Part shown: one piece after another, positions 1 through 54,248 of the stretch
Numbering within the stretch: position 1 is the stretch's first letter
Layout: each line of letters begins with the position of its first letter
Assembly (NCBI GenBank): GCA_951406725.2
Contig: OX597822.1
Coordinates: 93,124,001 to 93,188,000, forward strand
Reading direction: 5' to 3'
Length of the DNA: 64,000 nucleotides
DNA from: Octopus vulgaris
Lineage: Eukaryota
Translations under genes and position numbers: made by a program
The notes under the pieces: model-generated
What the model was told of the DNA's origin: nothing
The model's database searches: none
Seen by the model: the letters and a program-made list of their open reading frames with translations, nothing else

Positions 1-545
1 CAGTCAGCGGATGAATATATATGTAGTCGTCTGTTAAAGCAGTGGTTCTCAAAGTGGGCGGTACTGCACTCCTGGGGACCGTGGAAAGTTCCAAAGAGGC
101 ATTGAAGAAAATTGGGGAGATAATGGGGTGGTGAGTCATGTAAAAATTGAGGGGATAATGGGGTCGCAATTCATGTAAAATTGGGCGGGGGGCGGATAAT
201 GGGTGGCAATTCATGTAAAAATTGGTGGGGATAATGTGGTGGCGATTCATGTAAAAGCAATAAAATAATGGATTCATTAGTTTAAGTTTAATTTATTAAA
301 TACAATGTAAAGTATAATAGCCATCTTAATATGGCTAACCACAAAGGGTGGCTGTTACTGTAGCTTTTAGCCCCTGAAGATCATCTCCAGGTGGCTATTA
401 TGCTTTACAATGTCGAGCGGTTACTGTTTACATCTCGTTCAGAGATTTATTATTGCTTGCAGACAGTTTTTCGAAATCAGTGACGGAAGTTACTAGAAAA
501 ACACTTAAGTATTTGCATACAGGTCTTCCTTTTCATCGTAAACCG

Positions 546-604
546 GTGATTACCACCCGTTGACAAAAGGCAACTACCTCGAAACTGCGGTCCGTGCGTA
601 TCAC
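546..604 (+). ncRNA. Degenerate minimal type-I hammerhead ribozyme
   Basis: CCGTTGA (557-563, A6 mutated), agg/cct stem II, GAAA (581-584), self-complementary CTGCGG, TC. Extended stem I gtgat/atcac. Confidence 0.5.
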
Positions 605-607
605 TTA

Positions 608-752
608 GGCTTACGAGAGAGGGATGACCTCCCTTTGCAAATACCATAAGAGCACAGATAGTGTGCCTAAAGCCAGCTGGAGACGATGATCTTTTGGGGC
701 TAAAAGCTACAGTAACACCCACTCTTTGTGGTTAGCCATATTGAGATGGCTA
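608..752 (+). ncRNA. Conserved multi-hairpin RNA motif downstream of HHR (copy A)
   Basis: GGCTT..AAGCC closing stem; agaggga/tcccttt hairpin; GCAAATA; gcaca/tgtgc hairpin; GGGGCTAAAA; tagccat/atggcta hairpin. Homologous to 22041-22180 and 44981-45096(-). Confidence 0.55.
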
Positions 753-1249
753 TTATACTTTACATTGTTGAGCGGTTACTGTTTACATCTCGTTCAGAGA
801 TTTATTATTGCTTATTAAATACAGTTGCTTTGAATTTGCTTCAGAAAGAGGTCTATGTTTGTGAGGGTTAGTTGGGGGTGGGGTGCTAGGAATTTGGCCT
901 GGGTGTCAAGGGGGCAATAGCCTGAAAAAGTTTGGGAACCACTGTAAGTTAAAGTATGGTGTTTTATCCACACATACACATAAACACACTCGTACACAGA
1001 CATACACGCATACACGTCATTCTATTGAAATTTCGAAATTTCGTAGAGTCGTGGCATATTCAATTTGGAAAATAAGATCACATACCCGGCAAAACTTCGA
1101 AGTCACTATTAATAAAATCATAAGTGTTTGACAGACTTCCTACGCAATGTACTGACAGCTCGTTTTTTCCCTTTTCTACACCAGCGTATGTGCGAATGCA
1201 TTTGAGTACATGTATGTGGGTGTAAGCCTGTGTACGTTATGCGTATACC

Positions 1250-14880: not shown

Positions 14881-15428
14881 GTCTCTGACTGGCTTCTGCT
14901 CAAACGCCGCCTTCCAAATTTCACCCACAAGATATCGGCCGACCCGTGACTACGGTGGAAGACATTCAGCAAGAAGACCCCCTCCCCGCTCTTGGATCGA
15001 ATCACGAACCACGAACCACTTATACCACATACCACGACATCACTGTGGTTGTATTACGAAATACCCATCCGCTCTCTCTCACACTTTGTGATGTCTTTGT
15101 TTTCCTTTCAACACCTTTTATCTATTCTCATTTCTGAAATCCTCACCGTTTTGTAACGCGTCATCGTTCAATACAAGAAAATAATTACAATGGCTGTTGT
15201 TGGTTTTTGAAGCTGAAAGCCATGTCTTAATAATAATCTCCTGTCTGACTTAATACTATATTAGTTTTTCACGAATGTAAGATCTGTTGTGTTTATTACA
15301 CAATGTTATTGTTAGTGCAGAAATGTGAAATGATGAGGAGAGGTTAATCGGTGCATCTTGCTCGGTTAGCGAAGAAAATGTGGTCAATTGCTTGTCGTCA
15401 TCGTAATCGTCGTCAACCCATAGACATT

Positions 15429-16042
15429 AGTGTCTCGGGTCGTAGGACTCACAGTGTTTCAGGTCGTAGGACTAATAGTGTCTCGGTTCGTAGGACTAAT
15501 AGTGTCTCAGGTCGTAGGACTCACAGTGTCTCAGGTTGTAGGACTCATAGTGTCTCGGGTCGTAGGACCCATAGTGTCTCAGGTCGTGGGACTAATAGTG
15601 TCTCGGGTCGTAGGACTCACAGTGTCTCAGATCGTAGGACCCATAGTGTCTCGGGTCGTAGGACTAATAATGTCTCGGGTCGTAGGACTCACAGTGTCTC
15701 AGGTTGTAGGACTCACAGTGTCTCGGGTCGTAGGACCCATAGTGTCTCGGGTCGTAGGACTCATAGTGGCTCGGGTCGTAGGACTCACAGTGTCTCAGGT
15801 CGTAGGACTAATAGTGTCTCGGGTCGTAGGACTAATAGTGTCTCAGGTCGTAGGATCCATAGTGTCTCAGGTCGTAGGACTCATAGTGGCTCGGGTCGTA
15901 GGACTCACAGCGTCTCAGCTCGTAGGACTCATAGTGTCTCGGGTCGTAGGACTCAGTATCTCGGGTCGTAGGACCCATAGTGTCTCGGGTCGTAGGACTC
16001 ACAGTGACTTGAGTCGTAATGTCTCAAGTTGCAGGACTCATA
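15429..16042. repeat. 24-bp minisatellite, about 25 units (AGTGTCTCGGGTCGTAGGACTCAC)
   Basis: Direct tandem repeats with no spacers. Adjoins the 3' tail of a minus-strand SINE (16040-16250). Confidence 0.95.
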
Positions 16043-16268
16043 GAGCTAGTTTCTCGGTTTCTACGGCGTATAAGTGACTGAAATCACAGGAAATACCTTG
16101 AATGAGAGTCAACCAATTTACAGCTGAGTTGACTGGGCCAACGAGAAATGGAGTGTTTTGCTCAAGAACACAGCGCACAACCAGGTCGGAGGATTGAAAC
16201 CACGATCTAGCGACTATGACTGCAGCAGATTAGCAACTAGGTCATGTGCATATTATTATGAAAGCCTC

Positions 16269-16307
<39 letters not shown>

Positions 16308-16749
16308 ACGCGCGCGCGTATGTGTGTCTGTGTGCATCTTTGTATTTGTTCCACCACTATCTGACAACCGTTGTTGGTCCGTTAACGTACCCATAACTTA
16401 GCAGTTCGGTACAGAGACCGATAAAATAAGTATAAGACTTTTAAAAAAGGTGTCGGTTTGTTCCACTAAATCACTCCAAGGCGATGCCCCAGTATGGCCG
16501 CAGTCCAACAAATGAAGAAAGCAAAAAATAAAAGACATCTTAACTTCTTTTCTGTTAATTATTTCTCCTAGGCACAGGCATGGCTGTGTGGTGAAGAAGC
16601 TTACTTCACAATCACATGGTTCTGGGTTCAGTCTCACTGCGTGGCATCTCGAGCAAGTGTCTTTTACTATAGCCTCAGGCAAACCAAAGCCTTGTGAGTG
16701 GATTTGGTAGACGGAAACTGAAAGAAGCTCATTGCATATATATATATAT

Positions 16750-16942
16750 TGTCGTCATCGTTATCGTCGTCAACCCATAGACATTAGTGTCTCAGGTCAT
16801 AGGACTAACAGTGTCTCGGGTCGTAGGACTAATAGTGTCTCAAGTCGTAGGACTCATAGTGGCTCGGGTCGTAGGACTCACAGTGTCTCAGGTCGTAGGA
16901 CTAATAGTGTCTCAGGTTGTAGGACTAATAGTGTCTCGGGTC

Positions 16943-16944
<2 letters not shown>
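16750..16944. repeat. Second copy of the 24-bp minisatellite (~6 units) with the same 5' flank
   Basis: Shares the flank tgtcgtcatcgt.atcgtcgtcaacccatagacatt with 15394-15428. Inserted in a TA run inside a family-2 SINE. Confidence 0.9.
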
Positions 16945-16987
<43 letters not shown>

Positions 16988-18089
16988 TGTGTGCCTGTGT
17001 TTGTCTCCCCACCATCGCTTGACAACCGATGTTGGTATGTTTACGTCCCCGTAACTTAGAGGTTCGGCAAAAGAGACCGATAGAATAAGTACTAGGCTTA
17101 CAAAGAATAAGTCCTGGGGTCGATTTGTTCGACTAAAGGCGGCGCTCCAGCATGGCCGCAGTCAAATGACTGACACATATAAAAGAATAAAAGAATTTCT
17201 TTGTCGTTTACAATTCTTTAAACTCTTTCTGCCAGTCTTCTGCCCCGAGTCAAAAGCACGTTGATTCTAATCCTTGTATGTCTTCTAGTTTCCGTCATTA
17301 GACAACGGTCATGCTGGGGCACCGCCTCCAAGAATTTATTTTGACGAAAGAATCGATCTCAGTACTTTTTTTAAAGCCTGGTAGTTGTTCTATCAGTCTG
17401 CTTTGGCGAACTTCAAAGCTACAGGGACGTAAACACACCAACATCGATTATTAAGTAGTGGTGGGTTACAAGCACAGACACAAAGGCACACACACTCTTA
17501 GATACATACATACATACACAGAAACACACACGCAAACACACACGCATATGTATGCATACAGGCGCGTGGCCAAGTGGATCACTAGATCGTGGGTTCGATC
17601 CCCTGACTTGGAGGCGCGTTGTGTTCTTGAGCAAAATTTTTCATTTCACATTGTTCCAATCCCCCTTTCGACCAGGAGGGAATATTGGCCTACTCACCTA
17701 GCTAGTAGGGTGGCGTCATTTGAAGGCTAAAACAATGCAAAAGCGCATTGTTACCAGCGATATGTAACAACATCTGATGGCCTCGTCGGTCATGTGATCT
17801 CGCGATATATATATCTATATATCGTTGCTATTATGCAAAAGTGTCGTAAGTCCAAAACGTTGCTTTTTCAGAAAACGAAAAAGTAGTTTCACCATTCTAT
17901 TTCTTTTTACATCAGCAACAGTTTCAGCCTAACAATAATACTTTGTTGGGTGCATAAAATCGAAACTCCATGCTTGTATGATATTTTTGCGAAACTGTCG
18001 TATGTGGGACTCACTACACTTTTGAAAAATGCTAAACCGTTGTACTACACTTCTATACTTAGATGAGGAATTATGTATATTATTTGATT

Positions 18090-21170: not shown

Positions 21171-21808
21171 TACATATGCTTCTCTTTTCTACGGACAATA
21201 AACCTACCAATGGAACTTTGGAGAATTATTGATTCTTGGAGGTTATCTTCCCTTGTCATATTTATTGTATTATGTAAAAGCAAAAATCATTTCGTTCTAC
21301 TTTTATTGTTTCCTTATTTTACTTTTCGTTTTTCTATCCATTCTTCATGACCGGTAAATACAAGCCCGTGGATTACTCTTGTTTCGCTTTGCTTGTAAGA
21401 TAACCATGAAGACACGCCCACCTCGATATATGTATAAATTAGCGAAGATTCGAATATCTACAGTAAATGACATTTATACATAATTCTGAAGAATCGAACT
21501 CGGTACATGTTTTCACAATGATACTTCATGAATCAACAGCTACATATATTATAGCTCAGCACAGCAATGTTCATGGAATCCTTTATTACATCAATTTATA
21601 ATTACATTAATTGTAATATGATGTAAGAAAATAATTTGTCCACTTCATTGATCTTGCTTATGATTGTAAAAATTCTGCGGATATTTGTGAATTTTCAGAT
21701 GTGTCTGATAAAACAAACTTTCTTCGGATAACTGTTTGTCTGATAATATGTACACTTGGGTGAGCTTAATAGGGTGAATTCTAAGGTTAAAACCAGAATG
21801 AAATAATA

Positions 21809-22029
21809 TAGAGACACGCATGTTTCAGGATATTTGACCATCATCGGTCTAGAGTAGCAGAAGCCCGCCAGCCGCAGATATCTGTCTCGACCTCGTAAAT
21901 ATATATATATAATTTTCAGTGAAAATTATATATATATATTTACGAGGTCGGGACAGATATCTGCGGCTGGCGGGCTTCTGCTACTCTAGACCGATGATGG
22001 TCAAAGATCCTGAAACTTGCGTGTCTCTA
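21809..22029. repeat. 221-bp near-perfect palindrome (inverted pLTR segment) with an HHR in each arm
   Basis: Centre at ~21919 (aattttcagtgaaaatt); few mismatches between arms. Confidence 0.9.
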
Positions 22030-22031
22030 GA
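21985..22031 (+). ncRNA. Minimal type-I hammerhead ribozyme (mirror copy on - strand at ~21809-21853)
   Basis: Stem I TCTAGA/TCTAGA; CCGATGA (21991-97); weak stem II; GAAA (22012-15); GTC cleavage triplet at 22023-25. The mirror arm has self-complementary stem III ACATGCGTGT. Confidence 0.7.
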
Positions 22032-22040
22032 TGCGGGCCT

Positions 22041-22180
22041 GGCTTCTGGAGGTGTTTATCTCCCCTTCGTAAATATATAAGGACACAGGAAAAAATGTGT
22101 CGAAGCCATCAGGAAGCGTCGATGCTTCCTAGGGCTAAACAGCGGTGGTGTAATCCCCTACTGTCACGTTAAATTGACAG
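22041..22180 (+). ncRNA. Conserved multi-hairpin RNA motif downstream of HHR (copy B)
   Basis: GGCTTC..GAAGCC; ggaggt/atctcc; GTAAATA; gacaca/tgtgtc; aggaagc/gcttcct; AGGGCTAAAC; ctgtca/tgacag. Confidence 0.6.
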
Positions 22181-22596
22181 TTTACGACCATTCTATTGCC
22201 CCACCACCGTACATATCTCTATGAGATATTTAGAAATTTAATATTTCTGAAATAATATACACATGGGTCAAAACAGTTTGAATCAAATGTGTTGCTACTC
22301 TTGAATTTCAAGCGCGATGCTAGTCGTCAGCCACGAATTTGAATCAATGTAACACTCATTGGTTGAGTCCCTTTTTTCGTTTGCGTATTAAATTCATCTC
22401 TCGCTGGATGGAGTAATTTTTTTATTGATTCTACCTCAACTGGAATTCTCTCTCTCTCTCTTCTCTCTTCTTCTTCTCTCTCTCTTGCCTCTCTCTTCTC
22501 TCTCTTTCTCTCTGTATATATACATAGATTCAATGGTATCTTCGCAAATTATTTTTTCGTGAATTATTAGTTCCGTGTTCAAATTTTATATATATG

Positions 22597-44528: not shown

Positions 44529-44980
44529 CGCCACGAATATAGCTCAATTATTTTCCAGTTGTGGTAGGCCAGCCACAGATTGCTGTATCAGTTAATTTGT
44601 CGTAAATCCTCAGCGGTATGACTCTCTCTCCTCAGCATGTAATTACTGCTGTCGTTATTTGTAAAAGACCAACACAATTAAAACTCTATGCACTGCAATA
44701 AAACCAGTTATTTGTTCGATTAAAATGTTTTGTAGATTCCAGATGCAGTCACAAAAACAGCACCAGGTGAAGATATTGAATCTTGCGTCATAATTCTACA
44801 GATCTCTACAAGGCTTAAGCGAGGCACATGACGGGGCATAGCTTCCATAATCTGACATGGTGCCGCTTAAGGGTTACTTGACTGATTGTCGGTGACTAAA
44901 TCGGCAACCCCACCAAGCTTGTTTGGAGAAGATGTTATAATTTCGTCTACGGAGGACTGTTAAAAAGCAATTATATATAT

Positions 44981-45096
44981 TGCCAACTAAATGTGGCGGT
45001 CCTATAAAGGATGATGCTACTGTTGTTTTTAGCCCTAGGAGGACATATCCAGCTGGATAACGACACATTGTGTCCGATTAGTATTTGCGCGGGGAA
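44981..45096 (-). ncRNA. Conserved multi-hairpin RNA motif (copy C, 5'-truncated by TA run)
   Basis: Minus strand reads GCAAATA-ctaatc-gGACAC aat GTGTC-gttatccagctgga..tcctAGGGCTAAAA-acaaCAGTA..gcca/tggc. Confidence 0.55.
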
Positions 45097-54036: not shown

Positions 54037-54248
54037 GCATATAAGGTTTTTTTTGCGGTTTGTTTGTTTTGAGGGTTGTTGGATTTCTGCTGCACCGGCG
54101 TGGGCTCGGGAGGGGCTGTACCGGCGATTGTGCGCGCGCGCACGCATGCGCGCACAATCGCCGGTACAGCCCCTCCCGAGCCCACGCCGGTGCAGCAGAA
54201 ATCCAACAACCCTCAAAACAAACAAACCGCAAAAAAAAACTTATATGC
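54037..54248. repeat. Near-perfect hairpin palindrome (~101-bp arms, ~8-10 nt loop)
   Basis: Arms are complementary except one position in the T/A run; GC-rich core. Confidence 0.95.

Follow-up and report, generated by a model that had tools for sequence, protein, structure and literature searches.

Retrozyme copies in the window

The window, a 64,000-nt stretch of the Octopus vulgaris genome (GenBank assembly GCA_951406725.2, contig OX597822.1, positions 93,124,001 to 93,188,000), carries three copies (A, B and C) of the element whose parts are listed in Table 1. Judged by their sequences, the copies are parts of one type of non-coding hammerhead retrozyme with a unit of about 355 nt, and each comes from a different family. 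The original prediction was a conserved RNA motif in three diverged copies, composed of the words GYAAAUA, AGCC, GGGCUAAA and CRGUR together with hairpin 2 and a last hairpin. All of these parts are present in the three stretches (copy C has ATCC). The copies were thought to share little primary sequence; they are in fact homologous, and the five consensus units that were compared are 47 to 68% identical across the whole unit.

Table 1. Positions of the retrozyme copies and their parts in the window.
Feature	Positions	Strand	Basis or remark
Whole family A insertion, inverted and direct arm	293..825		14-bp target-site duplications 293-306 / 812-825, one mismatch
Copy A inverted arm, 3' end at site 1	302..396	-	arm and end mapping
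Copy A direct arm, 1.2 units, 3' end at site 2	389..813	+	arm mapping
Copy A predicted rod, hammerhead at tip	509..644	+	509-519 pairs with GCAAAUA-containing 634-644
Copy A type I hammerhead, U3-A8 core variant 560-566, predicted cut after 592	546..604	+	sequence, family alignment
Copy A hairpin 3 (AGCC 671-674 / GGCU 698-701, internal loop) and AA	671..704	+	most conserved segment of the unit
Copy A junction closed by P7 (709-716 / 775-782)	709..782	+	contains hairpins 4 and 5 and the site 1 position, ~763-766
Whole family B insertion	21799..22259		12-bp target-site duplications 21799-21810 / 22248-22259, flanks read by eye
Copy B inverted arm	21806..21929	-	3' end 2-4 nt beyond the hammerhead cut, not site 1; exception to the rule
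Copy B predicted rod	21930..22079	+	21930-21947 pairs with GUAAAUA-containing 22066-22079
Copy B type I hammerhead, CCGAUGA core 21991-21997, predicted cut after 22025	21985..22031	+	sequence, family alignment
Copy B hairpin 2	22082..22101	+	alignment
Copy B hairpin 3 (AGCC 22104-22107 / GGCU 22133-22136) and AAA	22104..22139	+	alignment, fold
Copy B junction closed by P7 (22142-22150 / 22202-22210)	22142..22210	+	hairpin 5 is 22161-22180; site 1 ~22196
Copy B hairpin 6 and AU-rich hairpin	22212..22250	+	direct arm ends at site 2, ~22250
Copy C, one 5'-truncated family C arm, without hammerhead	44973..45095	-	3' end at site 1, between (TA)n stretches

Hammerhead ribozymes, families and copy number

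The retrozyme superfamily consists of six families (A, B, C, D, F and G), of which F and G are 87% alike. A type I hammerhead with core boxes and stems I to III was found in all six, and its stems covary. The core is CUGAUGA in families C and D, CCGAUGA in family B and a U3-A8 variant in families A, F and G; U4C and AUA variants also occur, the AUA triplet in family D. Rfam hammerhead models gave no match in the sequences scanned. The cut nucleotides proposed for copies A and B (592 and 22025) agree with the sequence, and GGCU begins at +16 in both. The proposed fixed linkage to the hammerhead also holds: the predicted cut lies 102 to 107 nt before the GGGCU anchor in the five families measured. 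The claim that all copies lie downstream of a hammerhead applies to copies A and B only. Copy C has lost its hammerhead only through 5' truncation, as other members of family C do carry one.

More than 7,000 exact-pattern matches were found in the genome overall. The motif is far above chance: a strict pattern over the shared words gave 2,959 genome matches against 5 for a reversed control. A variant clade with AGCU on both strands of hairpin 3 gave a further 4,968 matches (239 in the control). First-look candidates numbered 1,984 for family B, 2,823 for family A and 1,579 for family C. A covariance model, trained on a set that included window copies A and B and excluded C, scored the three window copies at 149, 135 and 63 bits. 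In 477 kb fetched without a motif query, it found nine strong matches at six loci, one of which had been refetched following an earlier profile match; another 61 kb gave no matches. Together these counts suggest about 10^4 insertions genome-wide. Pattern scans of metagenome contigs and viral contigs gave no matches, and all of the evidence is drawn from a single genome. In contig C29 (G000:C29:20.69-20.71 Mb, loci L122 and L123), a family B insertion including its 14-bp duplication has been amplified within a larger repeat of at least about 2.3 kb.

The unit is 348 to 368 bp long and is present as dimers and arrays, with about 10 units at locus L121 and 5.5 at L265. At the latter (L265:2253-4252), the family G units are near-identical and an identical 1-nt deletion occurs in two non-adjacent units. 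The longest ATG frames have 5 to 92 codons and are not conserved, so the unit has no coding capacity. A type I hammerhead in each unit, tandem units within 150 to 450 bp, no ORF and target duplications longer than 4 bp match it to the non-LTR retrozymes.

As anticipated, no Rfam match was found. Scans of two arrays, one diverged copy and the tail of a SINE described below returned nothing above threshold, only sub-threshold miRNA and snoRNA noise, and the best 150 of the 389 matches for the whole window were all below threshold. Likenesses to H/ACA, C/D, twister and Y RNAs and to telomerase CR4/5 were considered and dropped, the Rfam scan being the test that bears on them.

RNA fold and covariation

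The consensus circles each fold independently to a common predicted plan (z = -6.6 to -9.6, 25 shuffles each). This plan has a rod that carries the hammerhead at its tip, together with hairpins 2 and 3, a P7-closed junction containing hairpins 4 and 5, and hairpins 6 and 7. The window fragments folded alone gave z values of -1.4, -3.9 and -0.4. In 22 real copies, 87% of the cells in 32 named pairs are paired and 18 of the 32 pairs have changed on both sides. None of 500 shuffles was as high, a control inflated by the relatedness of the sequences, and slid controls were 36 to 48% paired. Hairpins 4 and 6 were omitted from the pair count because the alignment is out of register there, and they rest on per-family folds. 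Within the rod and hammerhead, both sides have changed in 20 of 27 predicted pairs. The minimum-energy prediction for family A misfolds P7, which the alignment recovers. Folding favours the element strand over its complement by 2 to 20 kcal/mol in five of five families, and by 21 in family G. The expected covarying structure was thus found, but not as a discrete module at the 5'-OH end of the cleaved RNA: the whole unit of about 355 nt folds and covaries, and part of the structure may be there for stability only. Within this predicted retrozyme fold, kept across six families around two end points, the motif makes up the 3' half.

Several parts of the motif change their place in the whole-unit folds. 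GYAAAUA is one strand of the predicted base of the rod, with its partner upstream of the hammerhead; the word is not invariant, reading GAAAAUA in family D but GAAGGUU in families F and G, and it varies together with its partner. The proposed separate hairpin 1 is predicted to be part of the same rod. The GGCUU...AAGCC closing stem is seen when the fragment is folded alone; whole units pair AGCY downstream. In family B the closing-stem word is GGCUGC, and the U in the window is a private change. The motif does not end at its supposed final hairpin: CRGUR is the 5' strand of P7 and pairs with a strand about 30 nt past that hairpin. The conserved words could instead act at the DNA level as an internal promoter driving the next unit. 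Tandem retrozymes need a promoter, newt satellite 2 reportedly has an internal one that transcribes the next unit, and families A and C carry GYAAATA and TGTTTAC words, which we take to resemble the forkhead consensus. However, these words are lost in families D, F and G, they change together with their pairing partners, and the element strand, with its G-U pairs, folds better than the complement. We regard a promoter role as very unlikely.

AGCY pairs with the downstream strand at a probability of 0.71 to 1.0 in whole-unit folds. All four pairs form in six of six families, with a swap from C-G to U-A in families F and G (AGCU/AGCU). A conformational switch had been suggested for this word, and AGCY might move after cleavage from the downstream GGCU to the word 16 to 17 nt past the cut and so gate ligation or priming. 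The upstream pairing is possible, with four pairs in three of the six families (A, B and C) and three pairs in D, F and G, and the isolated A and B fragments do fold through the upstream word. On the other hand, the first pair is broken in D and, per the alignment, also in the B3, B4 and E copies, and whole-unit folds, including that of a cut linear family A unit, hold the upstream word in the rod. The pairing data weakly disfavour the switch, which we consider quite improbable.

Hairpin 3 together with the following AA is the most conserved part of the unit. Across six families, 17 of its 35 columns are invariant; for the unit overall the figure is 81 of 384. Its conservation is 49%, and that of the hammerhead region including its stems is 31%. 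At the base of hairpin 3, an A-U, a G-C and a C-G pair are unvarying in 22 of 22 copies amid neighbouring helices that swap freely, which points to a sequence-specific contact.

The high conservation of hairpin 3 relative to the hammerhead region could also reflect a second ribozyme, HDV-like or new; a ribozyme, an exonuclease block and an IRES were three of the four functions guessed for the motif. The J4/2 strand of HDV ribozymes has a GGCUAA-like word, and the element has GGCUAA after a hairpin. Unlike HDV-like ribozymes, it is without P3-L3, P1.1 and P2, and its closing stem is not conserved. A descriptor of HDV features found no P3-L3-P1 candidate on either strand of five consensus circles. 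The C that would be the catalytic one forms a G-C pair, conserved in 22 of 22 copies, and the next strand forms P7 with its downstream partner. Neither a ribozyme nor an IRES model in Rfam matched, and the lack of a conserved ORF speaks against an IRES. Xrn1 requires a 5'-phosphate, which the hammerhead product does not have, and this argues against an Xrn1 block. We consider these three functions highly improbable. The fourth guess, a signal recognized by a reverse transcriptase (RT), is the best supported.

Insertion footprint

Twenty-four loci that repeated others, as re-fetches or as segmental duplicates, were removed. The remaining set has 218 mapped terminal 3' ends, of which 94 are at site 1, 103 are at site 2 and 21 lie elsewhere. 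The 197 ends at sites fall into two windows that were set after the first end mapping and together cover 17% of the unit. Site 1 lies about 67 nt past GGGCU, within the P7 junction, and site 2 is 50 to 60 nt further on. The loci of families A, B, C and F were picked by queries favouring long copies; in the D group, mostly picked by a pattern that stops at the anchor, 49 of 55 ends are at the sites. Arms extend back from these ends through the motif, often beyond the hammerhead cut and for more than one unit.

Sixty-six head-to-head pairs were found, 50 of them with one arm ending at site 1 and the other at site 2, one with site 1 at both ends, one with site 2 at both ends and 14 with an end elsewhere. 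When both ends are at sites, 50 of 52 pairs are site 1 / site 2 (p = 3e-13). Window copy A is a complete example, with an inverted arm to site 1, a direct arm to site 2 and a 14-bp duplication. A held-out set of 20 loci from the young AGCU clade (19 from family G and one from a sister subfamily), fetched afterwards, contained 16 loci with inverted pairs. Fourteen of these were site 1 / site 2, none was 1/1 or 2/2, two had one end elsewhere, and the remaining four loci had no pair. In a test confined to non-microsatellite flanks (21 of 51 rows set aside, one locus counted twice), 19 of 30 pairs lie between target duplications of 10 to 15 bp; among 870 mismatched controls the share was 6%. Each head-to-head pair is thus the product of one event. 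(TA)3+ directly follows 62 of 199 ends, against a background of 4%.

In a sample where several families had been selected with queries spanning the cut, 123 of 199 arms extend beyond the predicted hammerhead cut and 13 of 199 stop within 8 nt of it. We searched for a pile-up of 5' ends at the cut and saw none; the 5' ends are scattered. Arms running through the cut indicate that the templates were circles or uncut multimers. An AU-rich word ends each site, and its microhomology to (TA)n may determine exactly where an arm ends. The predicted unpaired probability is 0.27 to 0.95 for site 1 (0.27 in family F) and 0.15 to 0.62 for site 2. These predictions argue against a simple "open linker" model for the ends, with which a partly paired site 2 and the range at site 1 agree poorly.

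Penelope-like elements

Penelope elements have a described signature that combines an inverted arm, a one-ended tail and a target duplication (PMC8557442, PMC3846280). The retrozyme insertions have an inverted 5'-truncated arm, a one-ended tail and AT-rich or microsatellite targets. With the Anolis element in vitro, both target strands are extended and the tail is the stretch between two RT start sites (PMC11167929). Three autonomous Penelope-like families of the octopus genome have two 3' ends each, one of them with a 60-nt tail, and at two inverted loci of autonomous families one arm was found at each end. The retrozyme motif is absent from the four Penelope-like families searched (GIY-YIG profile, full elements, all-loci profile and fourth-family search), and no pLTR homology to the retrozyme was found in the four families sampled. 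With no motif-bearing autonomous element among the four, recognition of the fold by a protein is something that we infer. Autonomous elements make two-ended insertions without the fold, which is thus no general requirement for two-site priming. In the accessible text of PMC13282606, 31 Penelope-like families of O. vulgaris are given as recently active, and the word "ribozyme" does not occur; against four sampled, most families may lie outside our sample.

The retrozyme unit has no ORF for an RT or a GIY-YIG endonuclease, and the Penelope ORF fragments nearby are separate insertions. A motif copy 1.3 kb after a Penelope-like ORF (L199) was rejected as a partner, being a separate insertion beyond a SINE. 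A loose-pattern match at L139:1802 was single-copy and attributed to chance.

Two Penelope-like families were recorded in the course of this search. The first (L191:906-4587) is young, with many identical copies and an upstream ORF that overlaps a 781-aa RT-GIY-YIG frame. Its pLTR has CCAAT/CRE-like repeats and its U3-A8 hammerhead resembles that of retrozyme family F. The second, divergent family (L257, L252) has 4,456 first-look candidates and a hammerhead-like motif with a UUGAAAA core. Its tail of 60 nt equals that of retrozyme families F and G.

Proposed mechanism of insertion

We propose, at a probability of roughly 0.6, that the fold serves as a platform on which a Penelope-like reverse transcriptase-endonuclease, provided in trans, docks and primes. 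Transcripts of tandem copies would be cleaved by the type I hammerhead into monomers, which would then be ligated to circles, as in other animal retrozymes. Covariation supports the predicted folding of the unit into the rod, hairpins 2 and 3, the P7 junction and hairpins 6 and 7. A Penelope-like protein would bind the invariant hairpin 3 / P7 region and would nick both strands of AT-rich or (TA)n DNA about 10 to 15 bp apart. One nicked end would prime at site 1 and the other at site 2, a twin priming with which the genomic footprint is consistent, and the two arms are seen in the genome joined head-to-head between target duplications. Counting against the proposal are a site 2 that is only partly single-stranded, a site 1 that is paired in the family F prediction, and the inverted arm of window copy B, which does not end at site 1. 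A more specific version, which we hold only tentatively and consider rather doubtful, is that hairpin 3 and the P7 junction dock a dimeric, telomerase-related Penelope RT and hold the two start sites in register, with both nicked target strands priming on one circular RNA. In that case no RT-recognition fold would have been defined earlier for an animal retrozyme, and this one would have been retained while diverging beyond recognition from the partner's own ends.

The main competing explanation is viroid-like self-pairing that serves RNA stability, ligation or hammerhead quieting. A Penelope-like protein would then recognize little of the fold, and the positions of the two ends would follow from exposed AU-rich words annealing to nicked (TA)n DNA. 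This explanation would account for covariation over the whole unit, and other animal retrozyme circles are described as highly self-paired (PMC7229834). The two-ended insertions of autonomous Penelope-like elements without the fold and the AU-rich words at the retrozyme ends also speak for it. It does not explain the three unvarying base pairs of hairpin 3. Furthermore, the two sites hold homologous positions despite the sequence differences between families, and other unpaired AU-rich linkers are not used as ends. We consider self-pairing alone unlikely and prefer the platform for a Penelope-like protein.

Comparison with known systems

The octopus element resembles the non-LTR retrozymes described from coral, mussel and axolotl (PMC7229834; review PMC7761336), with units of about 350 nt in tandem and a type I hammerhead in each. 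It also shares with them the lack of an ORF, a GC content below 50%, duplications of more than 4 bp and a strongly self-paired predicted circle (PMC7229834). Unlike those retrozymes, it forms six diverged families with one covarying fold and two fixed 3' end sites. Most octopus copies are dispersed inverted insertions of 1 to 2 units.

How animal retrozymes enter DNA is a stated open question (PMC7761336; bioRxiv 10.64898/2026.07.22.740005). The 2020 review, as far as available, gives metazoan retrozymes no conserved motif that would indicate the mobiliser (PMC7761336). Both retrozymes and a suggested connection with Penelope have been published (PMC7229834; bioRxiv 10.64898/2026.07.22.740005; PMC4209133). 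The 2026 preprint, in its accessible portion, treats vertebrate retrozymes as non-autonomous derivatives of Penelope-like pLTRs and calls for a mechanism. A proposed Penelope-like partnership is common to that work and ours. The case in the preprint is made from co-occurrence and pLTR homology in Xenopus, whereas the octopus case is made from the insertion footprint, with no pLTR homology found. The same portion of the preprint reports no conserved fold, two-site ends or cephalopods. In the literature covered, drawn mostly from outside subscription journals, nothing was found on cephalopod retrozymes, a covarying retrozyme fold or two-site retrozyme ends.

The closest likeness among autonomous elements is to Poseidon PAc of Anolis (PMC11167929) and to EN+ elements (PMC8557442, PMC3846280), in which two internal RT start sites likewise lie downstream of a hammerhead. 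AT-rich targets, an inverted arm, a one-ended tail and a target duplication are shared with these elements; extension of both strands in vitro is known for PAc. PAc differs in being autonomous, with start sites in an AC-rich stem-loop within the ORF and described tails of 30 to 40 bp (PMC11167929). The octopus element is non-coding, with a tail of about 45 to 60 nt, duplications of 10 to 15 bp and a multi-helix fold around the sites.

In this superfamily the fold is conserved, two start sites have been mapped, and a strict site 1 / site 2 rule goes together with target duplications. A twin-priming model of Penelope integration can therefore be put to a direct test on a substrate of 355 nt for which compensatory variants exist in nature. 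The copies also point to a very large, apparently still active family of RNA circles in a cephalopod genome.

Other sequence features

A tail of about 135 nt, common to two or more tRNA-like SINE heads, carries TAGCCAGC-hairpin-GGCTAAAA, with the words and spacing of hairpin 3. It is present in the window at 17685-17806 (+) and elsewhere at L151:300-430, L062, L159 and L218. Several copies begin at an identical base after (TA)n. One 3' end with short repeats was found, with no inverted arm and no Rfam match. In the predicted fold, UAGCC occupies a loop of 5 nt, from which it could pair with GGCUA as a pseudoknot. The likeness to hairpin 3 may be due to chance or to a captured piece.

The window also contains a GC-rich near-perfect inverted repeat of about 100 bp in AT-rich surroundings (54094-54191), which gave sub-threshold miRNA matches. 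Two 24-bp tandem repeat arrays are located at 15309-16051 and 16690-17072, and the first has open frames of more than 200 codons.
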